A stretch of DNA of 64,000 nt from Candidatus Lokiarchaeum ossiferum (GTDB lineage: Archaea; Asgardarchaeota; Lokiarchaeia; Sigyniarchaeales; Promethearchaeaceae): positions 3,169,121 to 3,233,120 of the forward strand of contig CP104013.1 in assembly GCA_025839675.1 (NCBI GenBank). Reading direction: 5' to 3'. A program made the translations under genes and the position numbers. The notes below the pieces were generated by a model. That model searched no databases and was not told where the DNA came from. It was given only the letters and a program-made list of their open reading frames with translations. This document shows, in pieces, positions 1 through 25,138 of this stretch; position 1 is the first letter of the stretch, and the number at the start of each line of letters is the position of its first letter.

Positions 1-491
1 TTGCCGGTTGTCCAACTATTATCAGTTGAGATTTATTTTTAATACCTATACGTTCGACTTTTATTGTCCCAAAATCAATCCCAACTCGAATTTTTATCTC
101 TGGAAACTTCTTTTTATCTATAAAATAAACGAGTAATTGAGAGATATATATAGCCGTTTTTAATGCTTGATCACATGCCCACTTACCATTTTGATCAGAT
201 GAGCAAAAACTAATCATTGCCCCATCTCCTGTATATTTGTCAACAACTCCACCATTCTGACTTACTTCATTAAATACCATATGTAAAACTGGACTAATAT
301 ATTTAATAAATTCAATCTCTGAGTATTTTGATGAGTTTGCAATATCAAATACCATAATAGAGGCATTTAAGGTTCGAACCTCTCCAATCGCTATTTCATC
401 ATCATTAGGAAACTTATTGATATTCTTCTTTCCTGGATTTTTTTTCTTATTTATAAAACTATTGAGCAACTGTACATCAACCAAATCAGAA
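1..491 (-). CDS. Class III adenylyl/guanylyl cyclase catalytic-domain protein (partial; N-terminal portion, 3' end lies beyond window start)
   Basis: The minus-strand frame is open to the window edge with a TTG start near 491. The translation VDVQLLNS...IMVFDIANSSKY...VDKYTGDGAMISF...IKIRVGIDFGTI...IIVGQPA matches class III cyclase motifs, and both metal-binding Asp and the substrate Lys are present. It is absent from the ORF track because it is not closed by a stop within the window. Confidence 0.5.
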
Positions 492-634: not shown

Positions 635-710
635 TGGCGCAGGTGACAGGGATCGAACCTGCGACCTGCCGGTTAACAGCCGACCGCTCTACCGACTAAG
701 CTACACCTGC
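635..710 (-). tRNA. tRNA-Asn (anticodon GTT), CCA encoded
   Basis: The reverse complement folds as a cloverleaf. The acceptor pairs GCAGGTG/CACCTGC, the anticodon stem is GTCGG/CCGGC with loop CTGTTAA, the T-loop is TTCGATC, and it ends in GCCA. Confidence 0.85.
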
Positions 711-909: not shown

Positions 910-1017
910 GCCTTCGTAGTGTAGTCCGGTCAAGCATCTCGGGCCTTCAAATCGTTTGAGATAATAGCGATTAGGTAAACCCCGATGACCCGTGTTCGAA
1001 TCGCGGCGAAGGCACCA
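910..1017 (+). tRNA. Intron-containing tRNA, probably tRNA-Glu (anticodon TTC); ~30-nt intron at 950..979 after position 37; CCA encoded
   Basis: The acceptor pairs GCCTTCG/CGAAGGC. The D-arm is GTGT...GCAT, the anticodon stem is TCGGG/CCCGA, the T-arm is CCGTG-TTCGAAT-CGCGG, and it ends in ACCA. The spliced anticodon loop reads CCTTCAC. The intron contains the AATCG...CGATT hairpin expected of a bulge-helix-bulge substrate. Confidence 0.6.
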
Positions 1018-1214: not shown

Positions 1215-1895
1215 TTAATTGACTAAATAAGTGATTTCCCGTAATTTAGGATGGATATATTGGAGTTTTTCATCTTGGACCAATGAGATTTTTTTTAAAG
1301 AAGGAATATTGAGGAGAGAATCAGGGATATGAGTAATAGCAGTGTATTCGAGCTCTATTTCTTCCAAAGTGTGCAATTGATCAATATTATCAGGGAGTTG
1401 GGAGAACTTGGGGGATAATTTGATACCGAGATATGTGAGGGAGGGTAAGTACATGAGATCTTGGGGAAGATGAGTAATATTACTTGAACTAATACAAAAT
1501 TTCTGTAAATTTCTTGAGTTTAATCCTAATCCAATTGGTAACTGAGATAAACGCTTACCTCCAATACAAAGAATTCGTAAATTTGGTAAATTTGATAAAT
1601 CTAAGGGAATTTTATTAAGAAAATCATATTCAATTTCAAGAATTTCTAATTTTGGGAACAGATTAGTTATTTTTTGAATTTCATCTTCAATTCCAGGAAT
1701 GGGAGAAGAATGATTTCCAAATAAAAATATTTTAGTAATATTATCAAAACTATCTATAGAGAATTCAAAATCATATTCTTGTTTATTAGCTTCCCACATA
1801 TCAAATAAATTTTTGAGAAAAATCTGAATTTCGGATGGAAATCCGGAAAAGGGATAGATTTCTTTTGATTCACGGTCATTTTTTTGCAATGTCAT
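1215..1895 (-). CDS. Leucine-rich repeat (LRR) protein
   Basis: The protein shows repeating LxxLxxLPxxLxxLxxLxxL units, for example LSNLPNLRILCIGGKRLSQLPIGLG and ITHLPQDLMYLPSLTYLGIKL. Its codon usage is AT-rich like the host. Confidence 0.6.
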   Translation of the reverse strand: MTLQKNDRESKEIYPFSGFPSEIQIFLKNLFDMWEANKQEYDFEFSIDSFDNITKIFLFGNHSSPIPGIEDEIQKITNLFPKLEILEIEYDFLNKIPLDLSNLPNLRILCIGGKRLSQLPIGLGLNSRNLQKFCISSSNITHLPQDLMYLPSLTYLGIKLSPKFSQLPDNIDQLHTLEEIELEYTAITHIPDSLLNIPSLKKISLVQDEKLQYIHPKLREITYLVN

Positions 1896-1970
1896 ATTTT
1901 CACCATCAATATTATACTTATTACTAAGATAAAGGGGATTCAGTCATCTATCTTATATTGTTCTATATTT

Positions 1971-4900
1971 TTAAACATCGTGCTTTTTGTTATATTCTTC
2001 TAACCAATTTTTGAAATGCAAATGAATCCATGCAAGGTTTAGTTTTTTATTAATGAATTTTTTATTCATTCTAAGAAAATTAATCCACCAGGTCAACATT
2101 TTAGAATTAATAGCTTTTGGATTAATTTTACCATCTGAAGTTATTATTTCTTCAACATATGAATTGTTGACAATTAATCCCAATCTTACTTGAATTTCTT
2201 TTGCTCCTTTTTTGCTGTTAAACTTCCATTTTTCATAATAAGATGTATCGGATAAATGTCTCAAAGTATCAATTAATGACATCTGTGAAAGACTTAGAGC
2301 AACCAATAATTTTTTAAACTGATATCGACTGAGTAAAGGGGCTTTAATTCCAATATATCGCACATTCTGAACAAATTTCTCATCCTTGGTCTGATTGAAA
2401 TAAAAACGGCGAGTCGTAGAATCATCATAGGGAATATAAAGCGGGGCAAACCCACAAGCGAGATAGGCCAGCAATTGCAGTTCCTTTTTCAACGCATAAA
2501 GTTTGCCCTTGAATTTAGCCTTAAATCCAAGACATTCTAAAAGAAGCCCCCACAACTGCTTTTTGATTTTAAAGGTGGCCCCAATATCCAAGATCGCTTT
2601 GCGCGTGGTTTTTCCCTTGCCATCACCTTGATCCATCTGATACTTCACATTAATGGAATCATGGCGGAGGATTTTATTGAAGGTTTCCCGGGCTTGAATG
2701 GACCGAAGCGAAGGTTCAATGATCTTGAGATCATCAAGAATATCGCGTTCAAAGAAGGAGTCAGCGATGACTTTGGTCAATTTTCCTTCAATGGTAAAGT
2801 ATCGAGTAAGGAGAGTGCGGCGATCCAGCTGAGCACTAAGTAGTTCCAATAACTGCGAATAAGTGAGAAAATTACCAGAAAAGGGTTCAATCCCACCTTG
2901 ATAAAACTGCCGGGTAGCATACCGATGCCAAGTATTGAAGATGGTCCAGTTGCCGCGAAAGAACAGGTGACAAAAAAACTGCAAAAAGACATCCAATGCC
3001 AAGGTTTGTTGCGGAACAGGGCATGAAAAATAACGCGGAGAACGGGTTGGTTTGACAAAGAGAGATTGAGTATCCTTCACAGAAAAGAGAGGAGTCGACA
3101 AGGAGAGATAGATTTTGAAAAAATCATTAATAATTCCAGTGACAACTGTGGTGGGGCGGTTGGATGTTAAAGATGCAGTTGATGCAGGAAGGAGAGGAAA
3201 GAGGGCAGTAGCGGAATTTTTTTTAGTGGTAGTATTTTTGATCAAACTTCCAAAGGCTTCTGGGGTGCCTAGGCGGAATATTTTACGTAAGAGTTCGAAA
3301 AACAACAGGAAGGGTTTCCAAAAGGGCAGATGCAAAGGATGACGTAGGTTAGCATATACAGCGGTGGTAATATCGGAGCTCCCATCACCAAGAGTGGTTT
3401 GAATGAGGGATTTTTCAGGAGGGGAAAGAACTCGCCATTGGGGACTAAGGGCAACCAGAGTTTCTAAATTAGCAGAAAGCCAATCTTGACGAGTATCTGA
3501 ACGACCAGGCAGCAAATCGTGAAGGGCAGACGATGTGAAAATTTGTTCAAGGATTTGGGTTCGGGTGACAAAACCATAGTGTTCGAGCAGGAGTCCAGCA
3601 TGCAGAATGTGATTCACAGCAATCCATAAATCGTGAAGGGGCGGTTTAGTTCGCAATTTAGTGACATAGTTCTGAATGGATTTCACAAGATTCCAACGGG
3701 CAAGGGTTTTTAGAGATTTGGTACACCATGCGGTACAGGCAACGTAGGCAATATTCCGAACCATGGTATAGACATCTTGGAACCACCCCATCTGTTGAAT
3801 TTTATTATGGCGCGACTCCAAGAAGGATTTAAAGGTGAAGCGCGCATCCAGGAGTTCTTTAAGGTATTCAAGATGAGGGAGAGCATTACTTTTAAAAATG
3901 GGAGGGTGAGATCCTTGAGATCCGATAGTGACAGATTGGAATGCAACAGTCCCTGCAATGGAAAGAGGAACGGCAAAATCGGGAAGAGGTCCATAAGGAG
4001 TGGAACTTGAGAGCCTTATTTTCCCAGTTTTCCATTCGTGTAATAAACGGCAAGCTTCATCATAAGGGAGATGGAGGGATTCCATAAAATAAGTTAAAAT
4101 GAGAGCTTCATTGGCAGGATAGGATGTTTCATAGAGAATAACAGGTTGACGACTTGATTTCGCTTGTTGAGAAAGATATATATATGGGTGGGAATGACAA
4201 TAGTGCTGGAAGGCTTTTTGCTTCATGGCTTCAAAATATGCCGAGGGGGAGGTATGAGATTGGGAGCGAAGAGTCTTTTCCATTAAGGAATGAAGAAAAG
4301 TGGAAAGATCAAAGGTTTGAACATCTTCCAAGGTGGACACTCTGGCAAAGGGAGATATCAAAGGTCCTTCGAGGGATTCGAGGAGAGTTAGGAGTTCAGG
4401 ATCAGCGGAGGAAGAATCCAGGCAAGGTTCAGCAGGCAGAGAATCATCGGAGGGTTGGGATGGAGAAGACGCGGAGGTTTTTGAAGGGGAAGGATCGGAA
4501 GGGGGAGAAGAGGTGCCAGCGGCAGTGAAATATAAAGATCGAGAAAGAGAAGGAGAACGGGATAACGCAAATGACATCTGGGGTTGGAAGGTCATATAAG
4601 GCATAAAGGGGAGATAGGGAGAATAGAAGGCGATTGCTGTGCTTTCCGATGATTCCTGTAATTCTTCCCATTCATCTTCTGGGATGGGAGGTTGATAAGT
4701 AATGAAACGCATTTTTTGACGTTGTCGTCGTTTATGGGATTGAAAAATGTGTTTTTGACGGATTTTGTGTAAAAAATGTCGGTAATCGCGCAAAAGGTCC
4801 ATGAATACTCGAAAGGTGACATGAGTAAGGGTTAATTGGAGGGTGTTAAGAAAAGAAAGTAACTCCTGCGCGGACAAATCTAAGAAGGAGTTGTGAGATG

Positions 4901-7427
4901 GGAATAGGGTATGTAAAAGAGCATATAATGTGTCAAGGAGTTGTTTGCGGGGGAGATTCAATGAATTGAAAGTCCGAAGATACATTTGAAGACCATGTTG
5001 GTCAGAAGGTAATGGGTCAGATGGGGGATGATCAGATGTAGAAACAGGAGGGTCGCAGGTTTCCGCGTTTGATTCGTGGTTCACAGTATTTTCTGTGTAT
5101 TCTTCTCCATTTCCTTCATTAGTTTTTTTTTCAGATACTTCTTCTGTCTCTTCCTCACACTCTGACGAAGTGAGGACAGGAGATGAGGGTGAAATGTTAG
5201 GTTTGGAAGTTTCAGAACACTTATCCCCAAAGAATTCAGTATAGGATTGAGTGGGTGCAGTTGTAGAAGCTTCACTGTCATACAAAGCGGAAAATTGATC
5301 GATATCTTCAGAATTTGGAGGATTCAGCAGATGATCCTCTTCCAAGGGAGAATCAATGTCTTCAAATGGTGGCTCTATATCCCGAAGGGATGTTTCATCA
5401 ATTTCAGGGGAAGTGATTTGCAAATCAGAATCAAGTTCGGAATAAATTTCTTCGGATTGAGTAACGGATGGTGATTCTAAAGAAAGGAAATCTTCATATC
5501 CATCACTCGGTCCGTATGTATTCTCAGAAACCCGCTGTTGTCTGCTATCATCTTCAGATTCAACGAATGCATCTGAATCAGAATCCATGTTCGATTCCAA
5601 TGTGGAAATATCATCTATTTCGAATTCCTCCGGTTCGATAATGACTTCATCATCATGAAGGTCTGAAATAGGGGAAGAGGTAGAATCCTCACAATCTTGC
5701 TTATCTCCTTCGTGAAGAGCACTAAGAAAATGGGTTTCGTCTACTGCATTTTCTTTGGGATCAACGAGTTCTGGGATGGAGGATATATCATCGGTCGATA
5801 AATTTTCGATTGTGAAGTCTTCTAGAACATCAGACTGATCCTTATCCGTTGTATTTGGGAAAAAAATTTCATCAGAATTAATTTCAATGGGAATTAATGA
5901 TTCTGAATCGATTTCGGGATTCAGAGGAGGTGGATCAACTAAAATGGGATGCTCATTCAGGGTGGAAGGATCTTCGAGAAATTCGTTGGGGGCAAAATTT
6001 TCGTCATTTTTGATCATAGGCTCATCCAATTGAGTTTCATCAAAGGGAAATTCGAAATACTGTTCCAATTCGGGATCAATGATCAAATCATAGGAGTCTA
6101 CTTCAAGAGGGAGAGACATAGGAGCAAGCGGATCTTCAAGAGCAGAAATTTCTGTGGGGAGATTAGGATCAAGTATCTCCTCTTGTAGGAGATCTTCAAG
6201 GGAGACATCACCATGATTTACATTAGGTTCAAGATCATAGAGAATATCGGAGATTTCAGGGAATTCTGGAAAAATATCTTCTTCAATTAAAATTTCAGGA
6301 AGGTCACTTGAAGAAGTCATATCCTCAAGGGTTGCTTCCACATCTTCCCATGACATTTGCATTTCTTCTTCCAAGGGATCGAAGGAGGCTTCAGATAATT
6401 CACCTTGTAACAAAAGTTCTCCTTCTGGATTATCCGGATCGTCTCCGAAAGAGATCGGAATCCAATCTCCCGATGTGGTGGTGGAATCGGATTCGGAGAG
6501 GTTTTCCAAATCTTCGAGAGAAAGGGAATCTAATTCCGGTGGAAGCTGAATCATAACCATACCTTCCTCAGAGTCGAGCAATAGATCTTCACCGGGGAAG
6601 AGTTCAGATGAAGGATCATCAGTATCTGCTTCGTGTGGGAAATCATCACCAGCCATCCCCAGGTCTTCAGCAGGGAGAAAATCATTCCATGAATCAGATT
6701 CTGCTGAAGTTTCAATGTCGGAAGTGAGTTCAGGATCGTTTGCGGGTAAATATTCTAAGTCAGATGAATCCTCAGGAACAAGAAGGTTTTCATTGTCAGT
6801 ATTGTCCACACTGTTCTCGACGGAGTCGTCATGGGAAGTCGAATCTTCGAATTCAGCTGGGATCTCCTCGGATTCGGGAATTGATTCTTCCGAAGAATTG
6901 AATTGAGAATCGGAATTATCTTCAATTTCATCAGAATCTGATGCAATTGTTTCGTCGGGAAGTAAATTTTCTTCATCCTCAGATTCATTATCTCCATTAG
7001 TCACATTTTCAGAATCGCTAATGAGAGAACCTGGTTCAGTAGTGTCTTGAAAATCGTTACCATCTGCAATCTCACTATCGTCCTCGGAAGAAACATCTTC
7101 TTGCGCTTCTGATGGATCTGAAGGTTCCGAAGGTTCTAAAAGTTCCAAAGGGCCTTCATTCTTTTCCCCTTCATCATCGGAGGTCTCCTGCGAATCTTCA
7201 GAAGAATCAGGAGTTTCGTTAATCTTCTCATCATTGTCTTCTTCGTTATTTTGATCATTTCCTTCTTCAGTGTTTTCATCCCTCTCTTCTTCTACCTTTT
7301 CATCCCTTTCTTCTTCTACCTTTTCATCCCTTTCTTCTTCTACCTTTTCATCACTCTCTTCTTCTTCCTTTTCTTCTTCCTTTTCATCGTTTTCTTCTTC
7401 GATTTCGTTTTCGATGTCTTGTGTCAT
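1971..7427 (-). CDS. Giant (1818 aa) protein of unknown function: ~900-aa polyacidic D/E/S-rich low-complexity N-terminal half plus ~870-aa globular C-terminal half
   Basis: This is one uninterrupted ORF. The N-terminus carries tandem DEKVEEER repeats and long acidic tracts. Codon usage is visibly GC-richer (CTC/CCC/GGG/CGG codons) than neighbouring host genes. The gene sits 16 bp downstream of the ATPase gene on the same strand. Confidence 0.55.
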   Translation of the reverse strand: MTQDIENEIEEENDEKEEEKEEEESDEKVEEERDEKVEEERDEKVEEERDENTEEGNDQNNEEDNDEKINETPDSSEDSQETSDDEGEKNEGPLELLEPSEPSDPSEAQEDVSSEDDSEIADGNDFQDTTEPGSLISDSENVTNGDNESEDEENLLPDETIASDSDEIEDNSDSQFNSSEESIPESEEIPAEFEDSTSHDDSVENSVDNTDNENLLVPEDSSDLEYLPANDPELTSDIETSAESDSWNDFLPAEDLGMAGDDFPHEADTDDPSSELFPGEDLLLDSEEGMVMIQLPPELDSLSLEDLENLSESDSTTTSGDWIPISFGDDPDNPEGELLLQGELSEASFDPLEEEMQMSWEDVEATLEDMTSSSDLPEILIEEDIFPEFPEISDILYDLEPNVNHGDVSLEDLLQEEILDPNLPTEISALEDPLAPMSLPLEVDSYDLIIDPELEQYFEFPFDETQLDEPMIKNDENFAPNEFLEDPSTLNEHPILVDPPPLNPEIDSESLIPIEINSDEIFFPNTTDKDQSDVLEDFTIENLSTDDISSIPELVDPKENAVDETHFLSALHEGDKQDCEDSTSSPISDLHDDEVIIEPEEFEIDDISTLESNMDSDSDAFVESEDDSRQQRVSENTYGPSDGYEDFLSLESPSVTQSEEIYSELDSDLQITSPEIDETSLRDIEPPFEDIDSPLEEDHLLNPPNSEDIDQFSALYDSEASTTAPTQSYTEFFGDKCSETSKPNISPSSPVLTSSECEEETEEVSEKKTNEGNGEEYTENTVNHESNAETCDPPVSTSDHPPSDPLPSDQHGLQMYLRTFNSLNLPRKQLLDTLYALLHTLFPSHNSFLDLSAQELLSFLNTLQLTLTHVTFRVFMDLLRDYRHFLHKIRQKHIFQSHKRRQRQKMRFITYQPPIPEDEWEELQESSESTAIAFYSPYLPFMPYMTFQPQMSFALSRSPSLSRSLYFTAAGTSSPPSDPSPSKTSASSPSQPSDDSLPAEPCLDSSSADPELLTLLESLEGPLISPFARVSTLEDVQTFDLSTFLHSLMEKTLRSQSHTSPSAYFEAMKQKAFQHYCHSHPYIYLSQQAKSSRQPVILYETSYPANEALILTYFMESLHLPYDEACRLLHEWKTGKIRLSSSTPYGPLPDFAVPLSIAGTVAFQSVTIGSQGSHPPIFKSNALPHLEYLKELLDARFTFKSFLESRHNKIQQMGWFQDVYTMVRNIAYVACTAWCTKSLKTLARWNLVKSIQNYVTKLRTKPPLHDLWIAVNHILHAGLLLEHYGFVTRTQILEQIFTSSALHDLLPGRSDTRQDWLSANLETLVALSPQWRVLSPPEKSLIQTTLGDGSSDITTAVYANLRHPLHLPFWKPFLLFFELLRKIFRLGTPEAFGSLIKNTTTKKNSATALFPLLPASTASLTSNRPTTVVTGIINDFFKIYLSLSTPLFSVKDTQSLFVKPTRSPRYFSCPVPQQTLALDVFLQFFCHLFFRGNWTIFNTWHRYATRQFYQGGIEPFSGNFLTYSQLLELLSAQLDRRTLLTRYFTIEGKLTKVIADSFFERDILDDLKIIEPSLRSIQARETFNKILRHDSINVKYQMDQGDGKGKTTRKAILDIGATFKIKKQLWGLLLECLGFKAKFKGKLYALKKELQLLAYLACGFAPLYIPYDDSTTRRFYFNQTKDEKFVQNVRYIGIKAPLLSRYQFKKLLVALSLSQMSLIDTLRHLSDTSYYEKWKFNSKKGAKEIQVRLGLIVNNSYVEEIITSDGKINPKAINSKMLTWWINFLRMNKKFINKKLNLAWIHLHFKNWLEEYNKKHDV
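7273..7400. repeat. 24-bp tandem repeat (ttttcatccctttcttcttctacc; 3 near-perfect plus ~2 degenerate units) encoding DEKVEEER repeats at the N-terminus of the giant protein
   Basis: The repeat is directly visible: units at 7273-7296, 7297-7320 and 7321-7344 are near-identical, followed by degenerate copies. Confidence 0.8.
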
Positions 7428-7442
7428 GAAAGATTTCCTTCC

Positions 7443-10019
7443 TCAAGGGGAATGTTCTAGTTGTTGTCCAACCGGTTTCATAAATAAAATAATTGTGATG
7501 ATTTTTTTCGCGAGGATGTATAATTGATAAACTAATTTGGGGGTGAGTTTGGGATGTCTGTTAGAACAATGGGACCAAAGGCGATTAAACAATGATACAT
7601 AGCGATCAAATTGTTCCTTTAAAGCAATTTTAGCACCCCATAGGATTGTTATGTTGGGAATCATGTGATTTAAACAAGTGGCACTAATTTTTTGTCCTGA
7701 AGATTTCTTTTGAAGATAGAAATGAAGTCGGGTTCCCCATATGGATTGCACTAAGGAAAAAGCTTGAAAAAGGTAATGGTGCTGTAAACAATAGGCAAAG
7801 GAATTTTTCAAATGTTTCATAGTATTTTCTTGGAGAAAGCATGGATGATAATAGGGTTGTTGATAAAGGAGCTTTTGATAGTGCCAGAGCCAGAGAGTTC
7901 GAGGATGCAGGATTGGAGGAGGATTGGTGATTGAAACACCTTGGTCCGTAATTTTTTTTGTGAACCCAAGAAATCGATCTGCCGCATTGATCAATAGGAA
8001 ATGACGTTTGGGTAATGTTTGTAGAATTCGAATTTCTTTGGGATCAGTGCTAAAAAGAGTGGGGGATTGTGAGTCATTTAAGTTGAAGAGAATTCTAATT
8101 CCGGGAATCATTTGCACATTTGGAATTAACGACGAAGGATTTTGATCTGCAAAAATCATAGCCAAACCTCGGCTGCGATACTCGGTTAGGATTTCGTGCA
8201 TTAATTGACTCATTTTTTGAGTGGCATTGTTTTCATCCGATTCATGGATCCCTTGGGAATAAGATTTAGAGAAGACACGGTGACATTCATCAATCAGAAG
8301 GACATAATGGAGATGGCCTTTTTGTTCAGGAAGATAGGATTGAATCATATTGAGGATGAGAAATACCAAGAATTTTTTAATAGCTTCACTGCAGGGAGTA
8401 AGGTCTAAGAATATGGATTTTCCTTGGATCCAGTAATTGAACCAGGCGGGGACAAATGTACGATATGCGGTAGTGCGGATAAATTCTTTAGTAAGTAAGC
8501 TATCAATTCGATTTTCGAGCACTCGCAAAATGTTTTTCTGGACATTCGCACCATATTGATGTTTAGCTTCTGTATGATCGGTCACCACCGCATTAAAAAA
8601 GAGCCGGAGCGTAGAAGGAATTTGGCGTTTAGCAACAACGCGTTTTAGAACAGTATGAAAGATCGAATTGTAAGGATCACCCCGCCCAACTCCAGCCACT
8701 AGCATGTCTGCAGCACTTCGAAGGAGTTGTTCCCTATTTGCAACGGGGGAACGATAATTTTCAATATTAAACTCCCGTTTCTCTATGCCCAGAGTTAAAT
8801 AAGGGATCAATAACATTTCATCCCCATAGGTAAACACTTGATCTACTACTCCTTGATATTCATTTACCTGCGTAGATTTTCCAATACCAAGAATTAATTT
8901 TCCAACGTGGGGTTGTTTCGTCGCGAGTTCATCCATTAAAATACGTAGAAAACTACTTTTTCCAAATCCAGGTTTTCCAGCTACAATCATATGGCGTGGG
9001 AGATCATCGATGGGAATTGTAACCGGATTGGAGGTAATTTGGCTATTAGAAACAAAAGTTCCTAGATTTAAACGAGAGGGGATATCTATATGTTCTTCGA
9101 GAAAGATATTTTCGAGGGGATATGCGTAACTGGAGCGAATTTTGAGGTTGGAGGGAAAAGAGAAATCAAAATTTCGTTTAGTAACTTCTAAGGATGATTC
9201 CAATGATGTCAGATCCTTTAATCCATTGATCAGGTCCCAGTAATAATAGCTGACTGAAGTATCCAAAGTGCTGATAGTAGCAAGATTAGTTTTGGGTGAA
9301 TTATGTCTACTTTTCAAGCAAGAATTAAATGAATTTCTTAAGGAATTTAGATTTTGAAGGATTTCATCATAGTGATCTTTTGGGGGAGGATGAGCGAGAA
9401 AATCACACCAAAAAAAGATGCGAATGGAATATTTCTCATCATAGGGATGACTAGTTGTACCAGTTTTTTGAAACAATAAGGCGCAATGAAAATCCGATGT
9501 AGTATTGATGGCCATAGCGACAAAATTTGGAATTAGGGTTAGAGATGTATGAAGAAATAAATGACCTGTAAACTTAAGTTCCCAGATTCGAATGAATTCG
9601 TTAAGGGGTTGAATAGGAATTATGGTGACTTCTCCATCGAGGCCAAGAAGGCTTGTTTTGAGCCGATTGAGGATTATTTTAGAATTTTGTTCTTGGAACG
9701 CTTGGTTGGAAGTATTTGGAACGAAGAGTTTCATGCTTTTTTTGGTGATATCCACGATATATACTTGGCCATCTCCCAAGTAATCTAGTATCCATGGTGA
9801 ATCAGTGGAAGATTGGTTGATAGATTTTGCAGAATGGAATTTTTCTTCTGATTCAGAGGCAGATAATGGTTTGGTAACAATATTAATTACAAAATGAGTT
9901 GGAAGAGCAGAGGAATCCTGAGAATTGGGACAGGAAGAACCTGATAGAGTTTTTATCACCATGTTTATCGCCAAATGGGTGCTGAGAAGGACAAAAGAAG
10001 ATCCCTGAGTCCGAATCAC
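7443..10019 (-). CDS. FtsK/HerA-superfamily P-loop ATPase (DUF87 / VirB4-TrbE-like), 858 aa
   Basis: Walker A is HMIVAGKPGFGKSSFL and a DExH-type Walker B is HYVLLIDECHRVF. There is no obvious TM segment. Composition is GC-richer than the host genes. It lies immediately upstream of the giant ORF on the same strand. Confidence 0.6.
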   Translation of the reverse strand: MIRTQGSSFVLLSTHLAINMVIKTLSGSSCPNSQDSSALPTHFVINIVTKPLSASESEEKFHSAKSINQSSTDSPWILDYLGDGQVYIVDITKKSMKLFVPNTSNQAFQEQNSKIILNRLKTSLLGLDGEVTIIPIQPLNEFIRIWELKFTGHLFLHTSLTLIPNFVAMAINTTSDFHCALLFQKTGTTSHPYDEKYSIRIFFWCDFLAHPPPKDHYDEILQNLNSLRNSFNSCLKSRHNSPKTNLATISTLDTSVSYYYWDLINGLKDLTSLESSLEVTKRNFDFSFPSNLKIRSSYAYPLENIFLEEHIDIPSRLNLGTFVSNSQITSNPVTIPIDDLPRHMIVAGKPGFGKSSFLRILMDELATKQPHVGKLILGIGKSTQVNEYQGVVDQVFTYGDEMLLIPYLTLGIEKREFNIENYRSPVANREQLLRSAADMLVAGVGRGDPYNSIFHTVLKRVVAKRQIPSTLRLFFNAVVTDHTEAKHQYGANVQKNILRVLENRIDSLLTKEFIRTTAYRTFVPAWFNYWIQGKSIFLDLTPCSEAIKKFLVFLILNMIQSYLPEQKGHLHYVLLIDECHRVFSKSYSQGIHESDENNATQKMSQLMHEILTEYRSRGLAMIFADQNPSSLIPNVQMIPGIRILFNLNDSQSPTLFSTDPKEIRILQTLPKRHFLLINAADRFLGFTKKITDQGVSITNPPPILHPRTLWLWHYQKLLYQQPYYHPCFLQENTMKHLKNSFAYCLQHHYLFQAFSLVQSIWGTRLHFYLQKKSSGQKISATCLNHMIPNITILWGAKIALKEQFDRYVSLFNRLWSHCSNRHPKLTPKLVYQLYILAKKIITIILFMKPVGQQLEHSP

Positions 10020-10084: not shown

Positions 10085-10339
10085 TTATTTGGAGGAAAAA
10101 AGGCACCCAGCAACAAGTAAAATTATGATGAGAAGGTCATAAGGTCCAAAAAAGGGGATTGATCGAGTAATCCAAACAAATTTAGAATTAAAATATAAAA
10201 TACCTATAATAATAACAAAGATAGTGACAATTTTTCCAAGATCAAGTCCCCTTCTCATAAAATCTATTCCATCATATATATTTAAAATCGAAGAATGAAT
10301 GATGGATTCTGATTTAAGAAATATCTGGAAAAAAAACAA
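10085..10339 (-). CDS. Small membrane protein (84 aa), hypothetical
   Basis: The ORF has a hydrophobic C-terminal half (IVTIFVIIIGILYF...LLIIILLVAGCLF). A degenerate paralogous copy lies at ~11590-11790. Confidence 0.35.
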   Translation of the reverse strand: MFFFQIFLKSESIIHSSILNIYDGIDFMRRGLDLGKIVTIFVIIIGILYFNSKFVWITRSIPFFGPYDLLIIILLVAGCLFSSK

Positions 10340-10450
10340 AAGGCAATATAAAAAAAGGCATTGGAAATAATTTTGTAATATTTGTTAATACTACAATATA
10401 AGATATTATAATGTTATTAAGTATAATGCAAGGAGAAGAGTATAATAATA

Positions 10451-10597
10451 ATGAAAAAAAAACAAATTACAATCAGCTTGGATGAGGATGTCATAAAAAA
10501 AATGGAAGAAGTGAGAAAGATAACCGGACTCCCAATCAGTACCCAAATAGAACTCAAATTGAAAGGATATATTGTGAAGAAAGAAATAGATGAATAA
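10451..10597 (+). CDS. Small ribbon-helix-helix (CopG-like) DNA-binding protein, 48 aa
   Basis: ATG at 10451. The translation is MKKKQITISLDEDVIKKMEEVRKITGLPISTQIELKLKGYIVKKEIDE. It is below the 60-aa ORF-track cutoff. A paralog lies at 11237..11398. Confidence 0.5.
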   Translation: MKKKQITISLDEDVIKKMEEVRKITGLPISTQIELKLKGYIVKKEIDE

Positions 10598-11054: not shown

Positions 11055-11236
11055 TTGATCTAGTAAGAAAACTTATAGTATATAAACTTTTAAGATAAAA
11101 CATTTTATTATAATTTAATCTCTTATGTTGCCTTAGAAACTATTATAATATAGGTAATTATAAGGATTTTTAAATACACACACGTATAGTATATTGGAGA
11201 AAACAATTTGATCTTTTCTTCAATTAGATAATGTGA

Positions 11237-11398
11237 TGGCAATGACAAAAAAACAAGTCACTATAACTCTAGATCATTCTATTGTACACGAAATGGAGCA
11301 GATTCGGGAGGATACAGGTCTCCCAATTAGTACACAAATAGAATTGAAGATGAAAGGATATATTGTCAGAAAAGAACATGAACCAATTGCAAACTAAA
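11237..11398 (+). CDS. Small ribbon-helix-helix (CopG-like) DNA-binding protein, 53 aa (paralog of 10451..10597)
   Basis: The translation is MAMTKKQVTITLDHSIVHEMEQIREDTGLPISTQIELKMKGYIVRKEHEPIAN. The two genes appear to be roughly three-quarters identical at DNA level (estimated by eye). Confidence 0.5.
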
Positions 11399-11589: not shown

Positions 11590-11790
11590 TAGATTTCCTA
11601 GGAATACTGATGGCGAATCTATTTTGAAAAAGATAGTGACAATTTTACCAAAATCAAGTCTCCTTCCCATGAAATATCTTTTTTCCAGATTATTTAAAAC
11701 CGAAAGAGGATGGATTGAGTAAAAAGCAAAAAAAACTAGAACTAAAATTTTTTGCGAACGAAAAGAAAAAATGTAAGAAGATAATCCTAA
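11590..11790 (-). pseudogene. Degenerate, frameshifted copy of the 84-aa membrane-protein gene (10085..10339)
   Basis: DNA at 11631-11680 (aagatagtgacaattttaccaaaatcaagtctccttcc) nearly repeats 10213-10262. The translation is split into MFRIIFLHFFF...stop and a second frame MGRRLDFGKIVTIFF... Confidence 0.4.
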
Positions 11791-12725: not shown

Positions 12726-13736
12726 TTATTGATATCGCGATTGGCTGATAACATTGACCGTGCGAATAAATTTCTCAGATAACTCGTCGTTTCCGATAAT
12801 GGTCAAAAGAGAATCAACGATATTACGATCTTCACAGAGAACGGGAATGGCACCGTAGGTTAAGGGAAAAAGTGAAACGAAAGAGATCGGTATTACTATT
12901 TCGCTACCAGTATCAGAATCCGCAAATTTCAACTTTCCACTCGGATTACATAAGATACCAAAGAAATTATCTGGATCAAGACCAGAAACGCAAAGATATG
13001 ACACGATTCCGCCAATATTTAATGTATCAGCTTCTTCAACCATTTTTTGAAATCCAACATTAGCGTTTGCACTGAACGCTTCAACTGTGATGCTAAAATT
13101 CGCAGTGCTAACGGCCCGTGCATCAATATTTAATCCACTGGAGTTGACCAAACCATAATAATAGAAAACTGGATTTTGAATAGAATCTAGAATAGTGCTG
13201 ATATTCTGAACAAGTTCCAATTCTTGATAATTTTCTGAAAAATAAGCACCTTTAGCGATATCAGACCCCATTCCACATAGATAGATAGCACTTCGGACAT
13301 TATTGCTAAAGAGTTCAACTTCTTGATCTGTGATTTTACCAGAACCAAAATTATCATCAATTTCCTTCCGGAGATGATAAATACTCGATCCAATATTATC
13401 AGCATTCAAGGGCCACTCCTGGTTATGATCGTGAACAATAGTCAAAAGCGTTTGTTGGATTCGAATGGTGATTAAACAAATCTTTTCAAAAAATGAAAAA
13501 GCAATTATTTGGTCTCGAATTCCTAAATCATTCCAATTTTCTTCACTCGAAGAGAACGCAGCAGATGATATACTTGTAATTGCATTACTATCGAGTTTAA
13601 GGTCAGTGTTTCTTCCTGTTTTAGCAATGGATAGTCCATTTTCATCACTTAAAAGAGCCATAATTGTTGCTTTAGATGACCGTAAAATTGAAGAGAGATG
13701 TTTTACCAGATTTTCCCGAACGCTCATGATTTTCAA
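12726..13736 (-). CDS. Roadblock/LC7 (MglB-like) domain protein, probably multi-domain
   Basis: The N-terminal ~110 aa (NLVKHLSSIL...ATIMALLSDENGLSIAKTG...AITSISSAAF) follow the roadblock pattern. The C-terminal part is alanine/serine-rich with similar periodicity. Confidence 0.45.
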   Translation of the reverse strand: MKIMSVRENLVKHLSSILRSSKATIMALLSDENGLSIAKTGRNTDLKLDSNAITSISSAAFSSSEENWNDLGIRDQIIAFSFFEKICLITIRIQQTLLTIVHDHNQEWPLNADNIGSSIYHLRKEIDDNFGSGKITDQEVELFSNNVRSAIYLCGMGSDIAKGAYFSENYQELELVQNISTILDSIQNPVFYYYGLVNSSGLNIDARAVSTANFSITVEAFSANANVGFQKMVEEADTLNIGGIVSYLCVSGLDPDNFFGILCNPSGKLKFADSDTGSEIVIPISFVSLFPLTYGAIPVLCEDRNIVDSLLTIIGNDELSEKFIRTVNVISQSRYQ

Positions 13737-16207: not shown

Positions 16208-18892
16208 GTGAAAACAAAAATCGGTTTTTTTATAAATTGTTCTAGAGAGAAGAATAGTGTTCATATTGGAGATTATACAATGAATCTTTTCGTAATATTT
16301 TCTTCTTTCGAAATGATGCTTTCTTATACAAATATAGTAATAGGAATCATTCTTTTGATTAAACAAATTCATGATATAAGAAGAAATGTAATTTCTCGAA
16401 TTCTTACATTTACAAAAACATACTTTCTTTTTATTTTGATAAATTGTTGTTTATCGATTTTTGATTCACTAATTTATCCAGAAAGGACGTTATATTATGT
16501 TTATATTTTGATATTTCTAGGTATTGGAAATATAATCTTTTATTTTAAGTTAAGACCAAAAAATATTCCAAATTTGCTTTTAAAAAAACCTGAATTGAAA
16601 TCTTATCCAAGGGGAAAAGTGAGAATTGGAACAATTTTCCATGAACAAAAAATATTGAAGAAATTTAAACTTAACATTGAAGATATAAAGAGACATATTA
16701 TTATCTATGGTCAAACAGGAACAGGAAAAACATGGTTTTTAAAAAATTTTCTATATCAATTTTCAAAAAATTTTCCAGAAATACCTTTTATGTTATTTGA
16801 ATTTAAGGGAGAATATTCAGATTTATCAAGCACTATTTCGAATGTAGATATTATTCGTCCTGGAGAAAACTTTAAAATTAATTTATTTGATTGTGATATA
16901 TTTCAGAAAGAGATATATGTTGAAATATTGTTTGATAGCTTAAAATCTTGTCAAATAATTGAAGGAAATGCGGATTTTTCCCCCCAAATGGAAAAAGTAT
17001 TAGTCGATGTATTAAAAAAAGTATGTTTCGATTCAAAAAATCAATCATGGAATACATTATTTACTATTATGGACGAATATGCAGTTCAAAATGTACGAAA
17101 CATCCCAATGTTAAATCAAACAATCATAAGTATAAAGAATAGATTACGTCGATATGCCTCAGGCACACTTTCATCTCTTTTCAATTTCAGTGAAGATTCT
17201 GATCATATATCTGATTTATTATCAAAGAATTGCGTTATTGATCTTGGCCATATACTTAAATTGGGAGGATCTAAAGAGGATGTAATTTTTTTTGCAAATC
17301 TAATTCTTAAATGGATTTGGGAATTTAATATGAAAAAAAATCCATCAGATAGCCTGAACCACATCACCATTTTTGAAGATGCTTCTTATATTGCTTCAAG
17401 AAAGCTTTTAGAAACCTCACACTTATCAACTTATTTAGAGGATATTGCACTACTTTTACGAGGTAAAGGAGAAGCGCTTATAACACTAACAACTACTTTG
17501 GATATTAGCAAAAACATCATTTTAAATTCTGGAACGAAATTTTTTTTTAAATTTAATGAAAATCCTGAAGATATTAATTATTTTATTGGATTAAAAAGTC
17601 AAGATCATATTGATATTAATGCCCTTAATATTGGTTTTTGTTTAGCAAAAATCGATTCTATTTCAGAGGTTTTTCTATTAAAAGGAGAAACTCTTAGAAA
17701 TGATAAGAAGAGAATTAAAAGAAAGGAAAAAATAGTGACCCAAAGGAAGAACAATATTTCATGTAAAAAAAATAAAAAAAAAAAAGATTTCTCACAATTG
17801 GATGCAAATAACAAAGTTTTGAAATCTAAATCAAGAATTATAAATGAAGAATCTAATCATGAGGGGTGTGCAAATGAAATGCAAATAAATAAGGATGAAA
17901 CTCACTTTTCACTAACTAAATTGATACAGCAGGCAGAAGAATTGTATTTGATTGAGAATTATAGGCAATCAACAGAAATACTTTCCATTGTACTCCATGA
18001 TCTAAAAAAAAATTCAAAAAATTTCATAAATATAGACCATAATCCCGATATTATTAACGAAATAAATGATATCATTGATAAGAAAATTGAAAAAACATTG
18101 GAAAATGAAGTCCTTAGTTCCAATGAAATTTTAAACGTGTTAAATATAACAAAAAGGATAAATCAGAAATATTTTTTGAATAAAATAGAAGTTTCAAAGC
18201 CTTTGGAACAAAATCATCTCCCCTTATTAAACCAAAACCCCATGTTGAAAAAAAAAGTGGACATAATTCAAACAGAAAAGAAAATTAATAACCAGAGTTC
18301 TTCAGCTCCAGGAATCATGTTGTTTTATTTCAATATGATCACAGGACCAGAAAAATATTATGAGATCAATAAACTTAAACTGCCAGATCATATAGAACAA
18401 AAAATTGCAAAAAGTATGGACACGAATTCAGGAGAATTTTGCTTGGAAATTGAAGGTTACTTTTTTTATATAAATATTTTCAGCATAGAATCAATATGGG
18501 CGCGTGGAAAAGAAGAAATAATTCAATTAGTCATTTTTTATAATTTAACTGAATTTAATAAGAATTTTATGTTATCTCGACTAAAAAAAAAAACTCATTC
18601 TCTAATTAAAGCCCTAAAACAAAGAAAGACATTATTCTATGCATTTTATTTACTGGATCCCACCAAAATGCTTATTAAAGGTGAGGAAATTAAGAAAGAA
18701 AGCATTTTCATTAAGATGGAAGTAAAAAAAATATATAATCATTTCGTGTATCAGAATAATTCGAAACACAAAATTGAAGCCATTTTCAACAAAGAATATA
18801 GATTGGACAACATAGATTTCGAGTATTTTAATTCTATCATAGAAGAATTATTATTAATTGAAAAAAGCAACCCATCCTTCAATTCAAAATAA
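16208..18892 (+). CDS. Membrane-anchored FtsK/HerA-superfamily P-loop ATPase (VirD4/CedB/TraG-like architecture), 894 aa; true start may be the internal Met near MNLFVIF
   Basis: The first ~110 aa contain three hydrophobic helices. Walker A is HIIIYGQTGTGKTWFL and the Walker B-like motif is HITIFEDASY. The C-terminal tail is long and K/N-rich. Confidence 0.55.
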   Translation: MKTKIGFFINCSREKNSVHIGDYTMNLFVIFSSFEMMLSYTNIVIGIILLIKQIHDIRRNVISRILTFTKTYFLFILINCCLSIFDSLIYPERTLYYVYILIFLGIGNIIFYFKLRPKNIPNLLLKKPELKSYPRGKVRIGTIFHEQKILKKFKLNIEDIKRHIIIYGQTGTGKTWFLKNFLYQFSKNFPEIPFMLFEFKGEYSDLSSTISNVDIIRPGENFKINLFDCDIFQKEIYVEILFDSLKSCQIIEGNADFSPQMEKVLVDVLKKVCFDSKNQSWNTLFTIMDEYAVQNVRNIPMLNQTIISIKNRLRRYASGTLSSLFNFSEDSDHISDLLSKNCVIDLGHILKLGGSKEDVIFFANLILKWIWEFNMKKNPSDSLNHITIFEDASYIASRKLLETSHLSTYLEDIALLLRGKGEALITLTTTLDISKNIILNSGTKFFFKFNENPEDINYFIGLKSQDHIDINALNIGFCLAKIDSISEVFLLKGETLRNDKKRIKRKEKIVTQRKNNISCKKNKKKKDFSQLDANNKVLKSKSRIINEESNHEGCANEMQINKDETHFSLTKLIQQAEELYLIENYRQSTEILSIVLHDLKKNSKNFINIDHNPDIINEINDIIDKKIEKTLENEVLSSNEILNVLNITKRINQKYFLNKIEVSKPLEQNHLPLLNQNPMLKKKVDIIQTEKKINNQSSSAPGIMLFYFNMITGPEKYYEINKLKLPDHIEQKIAKSMDTNSGEFCLEIEGYFFYINIFSIESIWARGKEEIIQLVIFYNLTEFNKNFMLSRLKKKTHSLIKALKQRKTLFYAFYLLDPTKMLIKGEEIKKESIFIKMEVKKIYNHFVYQNNSKHKIEAIFNKEYRLDNIDFEYFNSIIEELLLIEKSNPSFNSK

Positions 18893-20430: not shown

Positions 20431-20503
20431 TGGACCTAGGGGAATTTGAATCCCCGACCCCCTGAGTGCAAGTCAGGTGCTCTACCAACTGAGCCATAGG
20501 CCC
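20431..20503 (-). tRNA. tRNA-Ala (anticodon TGC), G3:U70 present
   Basis: The reverse complement reads GGGCCTATGGCTCAGTTGGTAGAGCACCTGACTTGCACTCAGG...TTCAAAT...TAGGTCCA. It lies immediately downstream of the 16S on the same strand, in the spacer position. Confidence 0.85.
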
Positions 20504-20588
20504 TATTGAAAATAAAATTAAAAATACAAAAATTATTACAGTTCTCTAAAGAGAAAAGTAGGGTCGTTATGACCCTACTTAATGGTGT

Positions 20589-22082
<1,494 letters not shown>

Positions 22083-23660: not shown

Positions 23661-24560
23661 TTGAACATAATTGAAATATTGTCATCTTCAAACATTGAAG
23701 AGGTGTCCTTAATTTTTCAAAGCTTATTAAATCGCACTCCAATTTTAATAATAGGTTCAGATGAGTTTATCGTAGAAGAACTGATTAATTCCCTAACTAG
23801 TTTCATGCCTTTTAGAAATATATTGATATTTTTTGATGATTTTATTCATAATGACGATTATCAGGCACTGATTGAAAATGAAGAAGTTGATATTGAAACA
23901 GAAAGAAATCTTTTTATTTCCTTTCCCAATTCTGTTAACAAGGTCATTAATCTCACTGAAATCTTTTTTTCATGGATAGTTGGATGCACTGATAATGAAA
24001 GAAATCGAAAAGTAAATGAAATAATATGGAATAAATTCTATATCAATCATGATTTTTTTTTAAAAATAGATATCACAGACAATAAAATAAAGGCAGAAGT
24101 GATAGGTAGGAAATTTCACCCATTAGATTTAACATTTGAAAGATGGTTATTTCAGAATGCAATAAATCGAACTGAAATTTCCATAGAAAAAATGAAAAGA
24201 GTGATTGCAAAAAGCTATAAAAAAAGCAAGATTTCAGAAGCTGATTTAGAAGAACTTATGGATTTTTCGTTTGAAGAATTAGAGTTAAAAGAAAATATCT
24301 TAAAAAAAGAGATCATTAATTTTTTCCAGGCATGTAAAAGAACTTTTAGTGTGCTAAATAGATTAAAAAATATAGAATCTTTCGGTTTCTCTACTAAAAT
24401 TTCAACAAGGACAATTTATTCAACAATAGCCTATAAGTTTTCTTCTATTGGGAGAATTTTAGAATTTATTGAAAAAAATTGGAAAATAAATTTTTTTACA
24501 CTTCTTGATGCGAAAAAGACATCAAATTTTACTGATACATTTGAAAGTTTATGGGGATAA
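23661..24560 (+). CDS. Hypothetical protein (299 aa) co-operonic with MglB-like and MglA-like genes
   Basis: ORF with a 16-bp gap after the preceding gene. It overlaps the GTPase start by 10 nt. I recognised no motifs. Confidence 0.5.
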   Translation: MNIIEILSSSNIEEVSLIFQSLLNRTPILIIGSDEFIVEELINSLTSFMPFRNILIFFDDFIHNDDYQALIENEEVDIETERNLFISFPNSVNKVINLTEIFFSWIVGCTDNERNRKVNEIIWNKFYINHDFFLKIDITDNKIKAEVIGRKFHPLDLTFERWLFQNAINRTEISIEKMKRVIAKSYKKSKISEADLEELMDFSFEELELKENILKKEIINFFQACKRTFSVLNRLKNIESFGFSTKISTRTIYSTIAYKFSSIGRILEFIEKNWKINFFTLLDAKKTSNFTDTFESLWG

Positions 24561-25138
24561 AAATGATTGTTAACTATAATGAAAAAAAAATTCAAATCAA
24601 AATCGTTTATTATGGCTGTGCCCTCTCAGGAAAAACAACCAGTCTAAAAAGTTTATTTTCAGGCTATGGTAGAAATGATTTGTTAACTTCGATTGAAACT
24701 ACAACTGGACGTACACTTTTCTTCGATTTTGGAACACTTCAAATTAAAGGAGGAGAATGGACAGTAAAAATTTCACTCTACTCAGCCACAGGTCAAGATT
24801 TTTATGCTTCAACTAGACCCGCCACATTATCTGGAGCAGATGGAATAGTATTTATCATAGATTCACAAAAGAAATATCTATCGGATAATATTTCTTCATG
24901 GAATGAATTGAACAGATATTATCAAAACAGTCTAAATAATATGCCCTTAATTGTTTGTTTAAATAAGCAGGATCTCCCAGAATTATTGGATACGGATGTA
25001 ATAATTAAAAATCTTAACCTAAATAGCTACAATAAAGTAGAAATAATTAAAACGATTGCATCAAGGGCAGAAGATGTGCTTCAAGCTTTTAAAAGGATGT
25101 TAGCTCAAATATTTCCGAAAATAACTATCAAGAGTTGA
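24551..25138 (+). CDS. MglA-like small Ras-superfamily GTPase
   Basis: G1 is KIVYYGCALSGKTTSL, matching the MglA KIVYYGPGLSGKTT motif. G3 is SATGQD and G4 is LNKQD. Confidence 0.7.
   Translation: MGIKMIVNYNEKKIQIKIVYYGCALSGKTTSLKSLFSGYGRNDLLTSIETTTGRTLFFDFGTLQIKGGEWTVKISLYSATGQDFYASTRPATLSGADGIVFIIDSQKKYLSDNISSWNELNRYYQNSLNNMPLIVCLNKQDLPELLDTDVIIKNLNLNSYNKVEIIKTIASRAEDVLQAFKRMLAQIFPKITIKS

Follow-up and report, generated by a model that had tools for sequence, protein, structure and literature searches.

A GC-richer block of ATPase, giant polyacidic protein and leucine-rich repeat genes beside tRNA genes of Candidatus Lokiarchaeum ossiferum, a possible HerA-plus-nuclease conflict module

The window analyzed here, a stretch of 64,000 nucleotides of the genome of Candidatus Lokiarchaeum ossiferum, carries close to its first position a block of minus-strand genes that encode a P-loop ATPase of 839 amino acids (NEF87_002690; 7443-9962, minus strand), a giant protein of 1818 amino acids (NEF87_002689 / UYP46404.1; 1971-7427, minus strand) and a leucine-rich repeat (LRR) protein of 226 amino acids (1215-1895, minus strand; Pfam LRR_8, 1e-9), the last lying 75 nt downstream of the giant gene. 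We read the ATPase-giant-LRR block, 1215-9962, as one three-gene module. The two large open reading frames (ORFs) that an earlier note had described on this DNA were recovered at 7443-10019 (minus strand, 858 amino acids from a GTG at 10019) and at 1971-7427; the ATPase ORF is 100% identical to NEF87_002690. The first of these holds as an ORF, and its start was probably placed too far upstream: ATG 9962 is more likely, because the gene is annotated from there and the only orthologue of the ATPase, P0002, starts at the same point. From the stop of the ATPase gene to the start of the giant gene there are 15 nt (7428-7442, minus strand) rather than the 16 bp given before, and the two genes are likely to be co-transcribed.

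The base composition of the window was not uniform when windowed GC content and tetranucleotides, the check proposed in the earlier note, were computed. In 1-kb windows the GC content was 0.37-0.44 over 2001-10000 compared with 0.24-0.36 elsewhere, the 16S rRNA gene being left out, and the block 4001-8000 was the most distant in tetranucleotide composition (0.045, the maximum of the window, with all remaining blocks at or below 0.027). GC at third codon positions (GC3) was 0.347 and 0.327 for the ATPase/giant pair and 0.17-0.31 in the other genes of the window. Amino-acid effects were removed from the comparison because four-fold degenerate sites were used; at these sites the pair showed GC of 0.410 and 0.405, and the 39 other genes of the window, which are the whole of the compositional background, averaged 0.235 (standard deviation 0.053, maximum 0.381). 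Both genes top the window in this measure; their z scores are 3.2-3.3 at gene level and, by the binomial, 11.9 and 7.7. The neighbouring ferredoxin/flavodoxin gene reached 0.381, and the LRR gene was intermediate at 0.343. The claim that the pair is GC-richer than its neighbours was thus borne out, and the anomaly is real but moderate, not extreme. The block is surrounded by core genes of the host (thermosome, Tsr3, Obg-like GTPase and 16S rRNA), which indicates that the insert is small and no large element is present, and the window also carries Asgard-typical genes (LRR, roadblock-like, Arf-like GTPase). Independent public short-read contigs (Logan SRR22273277 and SRR32148623) were identical to the window and ended within the acidic repeat region of the giant gene, and are therefore uninformative on strain variation.

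The core motifs of the ATPase are a Walker A GKPGFGKSS, a Walker B VLLIDECH and ADQNPSSL. Both Walker motifs are kept in the orthologue P0002, and their counterparts in alignments with HerA/DUF87 chains are G.tGsGKS and EEAHR; ADQNPSSL aligns with SSQRPSEL of the same chains, the Q and P being kept and the R replaced (N in the window ATPase, D in P0002, I in P0003). GKPGFGKSS and LLIDECH had been read correctly in the earlier note, which took the latter for a DExH-type box; it corresponds to the Walker B of HerA, the 'EAH' type, not to the DExH box of superfamily 2 (SF2) helicases. Profile searches of the ATPase gave 29.1 bits with Pfam FtsK_SpoIIIE (cut-off 24), 20.7 bits with DUF87, which is below the cut-off of 23.2 that P0002 passes with 27.5 bits, 6e-14 and 5e-9 with the PADLOC profiles mad8 and HerA, and 15 bits with NCBIfam HerA_antiphage against a cut-off of 800. 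A profile built from three ATPase sequences matched in the Protein Data Bank (PDB) a DUF87 protein, HerA, a HerA central-domain protein, TdpA and FtsK/SpoIIIE with E values of 1e-4 to 0.02. The nearest chains were 8yho (DUF87 domain-containing), 8xau (ATP-binding protein/HerA), 8wiv (Helicase HerA central domain-containing) and 8wet (TdpA); the FtsK/SpoIIIE chain 4nh0 followed at 0.005, and HerA/DUF87 chains beat those of EssC type. The ATPase is called HerA/DUF87-like because its Walker A, its EAH-type Walker B and its counterpart of the SQRPSEL motif line up with HerA/DUF87 chains and because of these profile matches. Judged by them it belongs, as a HerA/DUF87-like protein of great divergence, to the FtsK-HerA superfamily and is not a VirB4, so that within the FtsK/HerA/VirB4 clade proposed earlier the FtsK-HerA part stands, with HerA/DUF87 nearest, and VirB4 does not. 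No Pfam match was obtained in the N-terminal 300 or the C-terminal 190 amino acids, nor was a HAS-barrel-type N-terminal domain matched by Pfam in the former, and no convincing transmembrane segment was found in the protein. The ATPase has as neighbours the giant protein, the LRR protein, two ribbon-helix-helix (RHH)-like ORFs and the ferredoxin/flavodoxin gene; Pfam and NCBIfam scans detected no NurA in this neighbourhood.

Only one real homologue of the ATPase was retrieved from 5.8 billion clustered proteins. This protein, P0002, is 47% identical over its full length and is encoded on a 4.5-kb contig (L001) of metagenome assembly GCA_029935835.1, where it is followed after a 23-nt gap by a polyacidic protein. 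The tight ATPase-acidic linkage, with gaps of 15 and 23 nt and kept in the only orthologue, supports a shared unit. Contig L001 has 46% GC, and two other contigs from that assembly, on which paralogues are encoded, have 36-37%; taken with the composition of the window, the ATPase-acidic pair seems GC-rich in both places. The next relative of the ATPase is a bacterial protein of 999 amino acids with 22% identity (Desulforhabdus sp.); its gene belongs to a cluster (L012 1-11857) whose FHA, PP2C phosphatase, Ser/Thr kinase and BON-domain genes are on the same strand. No further relatives were found in IMG/VR, in GTDB species genomes (a collection from which L. ossiferum, or this region of it, seems to be absent, since the scan did not recover it) or in JGI metagenomes. 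This count may understate the truth because the word-indexed search missed the giant-protein family. The window also encodes a second HerA/DUF87-like ATPase (16280-18892, plus strand; 870 amino acids, Pfam DUF87 4e-11) with host-like AT-rich composition and a hydrophobic N-terminus, which may be membrane-anchored. It was considered as a paralogue of the block's ATPase and rejected, the Walker A region alone being matched.

The N-terminal half of the giant protein (amino acids 1-810; 4998-7427, minus strand) is polyacidic, with 23-52% D+E per 100 amino acids and K/R nearly absent after amino acid 100. Residues 1-800 carry a net charge of -246, and the non-acidic residues 811-1818 one of +33. 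The polyacidic half is probably disordered. It opens with a 24-nt tandem repeat (7273-7373, minus strand; 4.2 copies, 94% matches) that encodes EKVEEERD units, and contains a short conserved motif, WIPISFGDDPDNPEGELLLQ, at amino acids 322-341 (6405-6464, minus strand). The polyacidic protein of L001, which is cut off at 627 amino acids, is colinear with this half and has in common with it the motif W[IV]x[IV]x[FY]GDxPxxPEGE, present in one copy here and in about six there: one copy at the colinear position and about five more. On L001 (2618-4498) the form EW[VE]xVxYGxxxLRPEGE[IV]E was seen about six times at a spacing of about 30-60 residues. From its sequence the repeated L001 motif resembles a multivalent short linear binding motif. 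Neither the acidic half nor the middle of the giant protein has a Pfam match. The middle (amino acids 811-1539; 2811-4997, minus strand) is an ordered non-acidic region, homologous to the relative P0005 from about amino acid 1061, and its part from 1220 to 1539 was predicted by AlphaFold2 (AF2) to be helical, with low confidence.

The C-terminal domain (amino acids 1540-1818; 1974-2810, minus strand) is the most conserved part of the family to which the giant protein belongs. An exhaustive HMMER search of 1.84 billion representatives gave 11 relatives of this C-terminus, with E values from 5e-97 to 8e-4. In the alignment of the 12 family members the shared domain covers about 230-280 residues with the motifs LDIG, ExLGF, YGxxK, GFxPIYIPY, IGxxAPLL, QxAFGL and WWxN; E, K, Y, G, P and WWxN are invariant and a D is nearly so. 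The members measure 435-1818 amino acids, are 20-40% identical and have about 600 amino acids of extra conserved sequence. None of the 12 matched Pfam, and the family had no match in NCBIfam, PADLOC, PHROGs or the sequences of the PDB. On this comparison the domain is an unannotated family, each member of which that can be traced to a named organism is lokiarchaeal. The acidic extension is present in just two members, both ATPase-linked, and was found in none of the ATPase-less, apparently full-length members P0005, P0011, P0012, P0014 and P0015. A word-indexed protein search returned nothing for the giant C-terminus, with a single sequence or with the 12-sequence alignment, though members are present in the collection searched; such an index misses an AT-rich, low-complexity family, and its rarity estimates are therefore soft. 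Scans for further loci with a closer alignment gave only the already known L008 contig in genomes and none in metagenomes.

The structure of the last 280 or so residues was predicted by AF2 on the 12-sequence alignment with a predicted local distance difference test (pLDDT) score of about 76-97 per 10-residue block. Foldseek found nothing significant in the PDB; the top of the list contained SwaI, MspJI, PfoI, MunI, BamHI, AddAB and Cap4. The BFVD list contained DUF2726, DUF1064, VRR-NUC, Cas4 and Mrr-like proteins, and TnsA was also among the fold matches. The best non-helical structural matches were thus PD-(D/E)xK nucleases, the matches being weak. Conservation and predicted strands single out D1614 (2586-2588), E1631 (2535-2537) and K1648 (2484-2486) as candidate catalytic residues (2484-2588, minus strand): in the model a beta-strand begins right after D1614, the next strand contains E1631 and the helix that follows contains K1648, an order consistent with an alpha-beta-beta-beta-alpha-beta core with a shifted lysine. 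Active-site residues are known to migrate in the PD-(D/E)xK superfamily. We consider it rather likely, on the strength of the model, that the domain has a PD-(D/E)xK (restriction-endonuclease-like, REase-like) fold, and infer that it may be a catalytically active nuclease. The statement of the earlier note that neither partner is a known nuclease is therefore probably wrong, since the C-terminal fold matches PD-(D/E)xK nucleases.

The LRR gene was analyzed together with the surroundings of the giant-protein family. Downstream DNA could be read in seven contexts (the window, L004, L005, L006, L007, L008 and L014). The next same-strand gene encodes a clear LRR protein in four of them (window, L006, L007 and L014), a protein with a weak LRR match on L005 and one with weak ankyrin matches on L008. 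The LRR proteins of the window and of L005, which comes from Ca. Harpocratesius repetitus, have a specific N-terminal motif in common. Because it is a recurrent partner of the giant family, the LRR gene at 1215-1895 belongs to the unit; the block therefore reaches to about 200 bp from the tRNA beyond it and does not end at 1971 as had been proposed. Most family members have no adjoining ATPase, and the nuclease-LRR pair would therefore function without one. Ca. H. repetitus has two family paralogues among host genes (L005 and L014). The second of these is followed by its LRR gene, and the two lie 1.4 kb upstream of a 207-amino-acid gene and an AbiEii gene (L014 14510-16062), a proximity to an AbiE-type toxin-antitoxin or defence pair that hints at a defence-island setting.

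Two tRNA genes lie beyond the LRR gene, about where the earlier note had placed them. The first from the block is an intron-containing tRNA (910-1014, plus strand; Rfam RF00005, 43.1 bits) that ARAGORN missed and whose anticodon loop holds a 34-nt insert; it is 957 bp from the giant-gene stop, and its 3' end is turned towards that of the module at a distance of 200 bp. The second is a tRNA-Asn (GTT) at 638-710 (minus strand), found by both ARAGORN and Rfam. Another intron-containing tRNA missed by ARAGORN and detected by Rfam, also of 105 nt, is present at L008 3479-3583 (plus strand); the two are distinct tRNAs, each adjoining a gene of the giant-protein family. A tRNA gene was found within 200 bp of the module 3' end in 4 of the 7 contexts (window, L004, L006 and L008), with its 3' end facing the module in three of the four, and the tRNAs differ among loci. 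Arithmetic on the locus lengths gives a probability of about 2e-5 that all three Rfam tRNAs of L004, L006 and L008 would fall this close to the module end. The proposed link with a tRNA hotspot was thus strengthened by three further loci, and the intron-containing tRNA of the window putatively marks a hotspot boundary.

This distribution bears on one alternative, a selfish homing-like endonuclease family whose C-terminal nuclease would cut in or close to tRNA genes, so that the gene inserts there and spreads by repair, and of which the copy in the window would have gained an acidic extension and an ATPase. The differing tRNAs, the lack of an integrase or att site, the position of L004 and L008, where a single family gene lies between ordinary genes and the tRNA, and the REase-like fold with TnsA among its matches would all suit such a family. 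On the other hand, no tRNA lies near the family genes on L005, L007 and L014, the LRR partner would be left unexplained, known homing endonucleases are far smaller than these proteins, which contain the extra conserved sequence noted above, and copies of 20-40% identity give no sign of recent mobility. We regard this explanation as unlikely.

A second alternative is that the block is what remains of a conjugative or viral element once integrated at the tRNA, the ATPase being its DNA-translocating or packaging motor and the giant protein a leftover structural or accessory protein. FtsK-HerA ATPases drive both conjugation and varidnavirus packaging, including that of Asgard skuldviruses, and two marks of a mobile element were found here: the atypical composition, and a position beside a tRNA whose 3' end faces the block, with the same adjacency at three related loci. 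The far flank, in AT-rich DNA, adds two small RHH-like ORFs (10451-10597 and 11233-11397, plus strand) that are 67% identical to each other and weakly similar to RelB/DinJ (E 0.014-0.055). A 90-nt segment (10217-10306) is repeated at 11629-11718 with 76% identity. The duplicated small-gene module of the earlier note therefore stands as a pair of RHH-like genes and a repeat, and not as a single tandem module. The second repeat copy lies inside what appears to be a truncated copy of a small membrane ORF. An imperfect inverted repeat, 1911-1966 against 10388-10427, also brackets the ATPase and giant genes; its arms match at 17/22 and 16/18 positions, and the left arm has a 16-nt insert. As a terminal inverted repeat it was rejected, because its arms sit upstream of genes (LRR and RHH-like) and its core 13-mer, allowing up to 2 mismatches, occurs at chance frequency.

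Against an element remnant, the Pfam scans revealed no integrase or recombinase in the ORFs of 1-25 kb and, within 1-14 kb, no gene for a capsid, a relaxase or any other conjugation protein. Att-like repeats near the edges were looked for, as the earlier note had advised, and none was found: each tRNA 3' end occurs once (up to 3 mismatches), and no flanking direct repeat exceeds chance. Searches of IMG/VR, INPHARED phages and PLSDB plasmids gave no relative of the ATPase, whose PHROG matches are at the P-loop level, weak and partial. A32-type packaging ATPases are small, unlike this 839-residue protein with its large extra domains. The published L. ossiferum provirus is from strain B36 and is at another locus and of another type. 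The conjugative or viral remnant advanced in the earlier note consequently received no positive support, and we give it little chance; what that note observed holds, and its interpretation holds in part. Judged from sequence and predicted structure, the block looks like an undescribed conflict module and not like the remnant of a virus or conjugative element.

The reading that we favour, tentatively and at somewhat less than an even chance, is a horizontally acquired HerA-plus-nuclease conflict module (for defence, or toxin/addiction-like) at a tRNA-adjacent hotspot. The donor would be a GC-richer lokiarchaeal relative, or a mobile element of such a relative, from which the genes would have entered the tRNA-adjacent variable site of L. 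ossiferum. In the module the C-terminal nuclease domain would be the effector, with D1614, E1631 and K1648 as candidate catalysts, and the LRR protein may bind this effector, either as an immunity-like inhibitor or as a sensor. The linkage of the ATPase with the acidic extension in two cases suggests that the HerA-type ring motor would work with the polyacidic region. The polyanion could act as a DNA-like occupant of the DNA-binding surfaces of the motor, of the basic half of the nuclease protein (+33) or of both, and the complex would be kept off until foreign DNA or another trigger displaces the polyanion.

Several results weigh against the conflict-module reading. The residue two positions after E1631 is L and not K, so that the lysine is off the canonical (D/E)xK position. 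No known defence effector or complete defence system was matched, the PADLOC matches being at the level of the ATPase. The family members without an adjoining ATPase are the majority, and the examples that combine ATPase and acidic region are two, which is anecdotal. The AF2 model of the ATPase, made on a two-sequence alignment, had a pLDDT of 34 and is unusable as regards a ring and its pore. That the polyacidic region is a DNA mimic holding the complex inactive is a conjecture of ours, and the literature holds no mention of the block's locus tags or contig accessions.

A third alternative, to which we also assign a low probability, is that the genes serve ordinary host DNA or chromatin metabolism, as a HerA-NurA-like motor-nuclease with an acidic region that binds histones or other basic proteins, the composition following from amino-acid content and constraints on the individual genes and not from transfer. 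HerA-nuclease pairs are housekeeping in archaea, the family is native to Lokiarchaeia, with the two H. repetitus paralogues lying among host genes, and a host gene of the window reaches a four-fold-site GC of 0.38. Against this, four-fold-site GC is independent of amino-acid content and is highest in the window for exactly these two genes, the ATPase has its single homologue among the clustered proteins and no NurA match beside it, and the family is patchily distributed with multiple paralogues.

Within a motor-nuclease module a bolder mechanism can be considered, which we hold to be quite improbable: the ring ATPase would act on a protein polyanion, instead of DNA or besides it, the acidic half lying in its pore, or being drawn through it, like a thread of DNA and thereby gating the tethered nuclease, with the LRR protein as sensor or inhibitor. 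What so far argues for it is the occurrence of the acidic extension in exactly the two members that follow an ATPase and its absence from the ATPase-less full-length ones. The weakest of the alternatives, toxin export analogous to bacterial type VII secretion, in which an FtsK/SpoIIIE ATPase exports a nuclease toxin and an immunity gene follows downstream, would fit the order of a REase-like C-terminus and a repeat protein (LRR, or weakly ankyrin on L008, both with documented immunity counterparts) and the match to 4nh0, and is nevertheless very doubtful, since none of the three proteins has a signal peptide or convincing transmembrane segment, no linked membrane component is encoded nearby, the C-terminus is conserved, the reverse of polymorphic toxins, and HerA/DUF87 chains outscore EssC-type ones.

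If the conflict-module reading is true, the locus would represent a new HerA-plus-nuclease conflict system with an 800-residue polyanionic region and an LRR partner, and the family would be a previously unannotated group of nuclease-like proteins beside tRNA genes, lokiarchaeal where the source can be named. LRR proteins, of which Asgard archaea have a greatly expanded number, play a central part in the innate immunity of eukaryotes, and would here stand beside a putative nuclease effector in a prokaryote related to them. Should the pore-threading mechanism be true, FtsK-HerA motors would be regulated by a principle that is new for them, and LRR protein, nuclease and motor would make up an Asgard-specific immune or toxin module. 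Even if the conflict-module reading is mistaken, what remains is a small, tRNA-adjacent variable site with two nearly orphan proteins. L. ossiferum is among the very few cultured Asgard archaea, so that the module can be tested in the organism itself.

Other features of the window were recorded apart from the block. A complete archaeal 16S rRNA gene (20431-22082, minus strand) is followed by a tRNA-Ala; the next 4 kb, which are AT-rich, contain no 23S rRNA, and the rRNA genes therefore appear unlinked here. The ORF 30676-34800 (plus strand, 1374 amino acids) contains 261-nt tandem repeats (3 copies, 74-100%) and 156-nt relatives of them between 32401 and 34641. Eukaryote-like signalling genes typical of Asgard archaea are represented by a gene with a weak MAPKK1_Int (roadblock/LAMTOR-like) match (12726-13736, minus strand), an Arf/Ras-like small GTPase gene (24551-25138, plus strand) and, at the window edge, a fragment with a weak adenylate/guanylate cyclase match (2-487, minus strand).

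Compared with known systems, the block resembles polymorphic toxin cassettes and type VII secretion loci in having a large protein with a C-terminal nuclease-like domain followed by an LRR gene (ankyrin-like on L008), and type VII secretion also in having an FtsK-HerA-superfamily ATPase gene upstream of the large protein. Imm-LRR, Imm-Ank and Imm-HEAT are described as immunity proteins and REase-fold domains as C-terminal toxins (Zhang et al. 2012, PMC3482391). The proteins of the block differ from such cassettes in lacking a secretion signal or membrane anchor, in a C-terminus that is conserved and not variable, and in being archaeal proteins with no Pfam Tox-REase match. MADS, the methylation-associated defence system, an eight-gene operon mad1-mad8 (bioRxiv 10.1101/2023.03.30.534895), supplies through mad8 the best single profile match of the ATPase, at 6e-14, with residues 299-638 aligned to positions 1-263 of the 314 of the profile. 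This match is limited to the P-loop core and the other seven mad genes are absent beside the ATPase, which adds to the points that count against a conflict module. HerA-NurA pairs, which resect DNA ends in archaea, have, like the block, a HerA-family motor beside a nuclease-like partner; they differ in that no NurA domain is present here, the fold evidence is for PD-(D/E)xK and not for NurA, and the genes are rare, patchily distributed and of atypical composition.

For the polyacidic region, phage Ocr, a DNA mimic, and eukaryotic ANP32, which combines an LRR domain with an acidic tail, offer an analogy, in that a charge of -246 over 800 residues occurs in a protein predicted to act on DNA and beside an LRR neighbour. 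The region of the giant protein is long, of low complexity and probably disordered, unlike a folded mimic, and has no sequence or structural kinship with either. SIR2-HerA and DUF4297-HerA are HerA-effector anti-phage systems. The block differs from these and from TdpAB in matching them with E values of only 1e-4 to 2e-3, in having N (D in the orthologue) where the QRP motif has its R, in the unassigned regions of 300 and 190 residues at the N- and C-terminus of the ATPase, in an effector of 1818 amino acids that has an 800-residue polyacidic half and matches no known effector family, in a third gene of LRR type, and in being hosted by an archaeon. With the HerA-effector and TdpAB systems it shares Walker A, Walker B (EAH) and QRP-like motifs that align, and the same gene arrangement, a HerA/DUF87 ATPase gene directly next to that of a probable PD-(D/E)xK-like nuclease.

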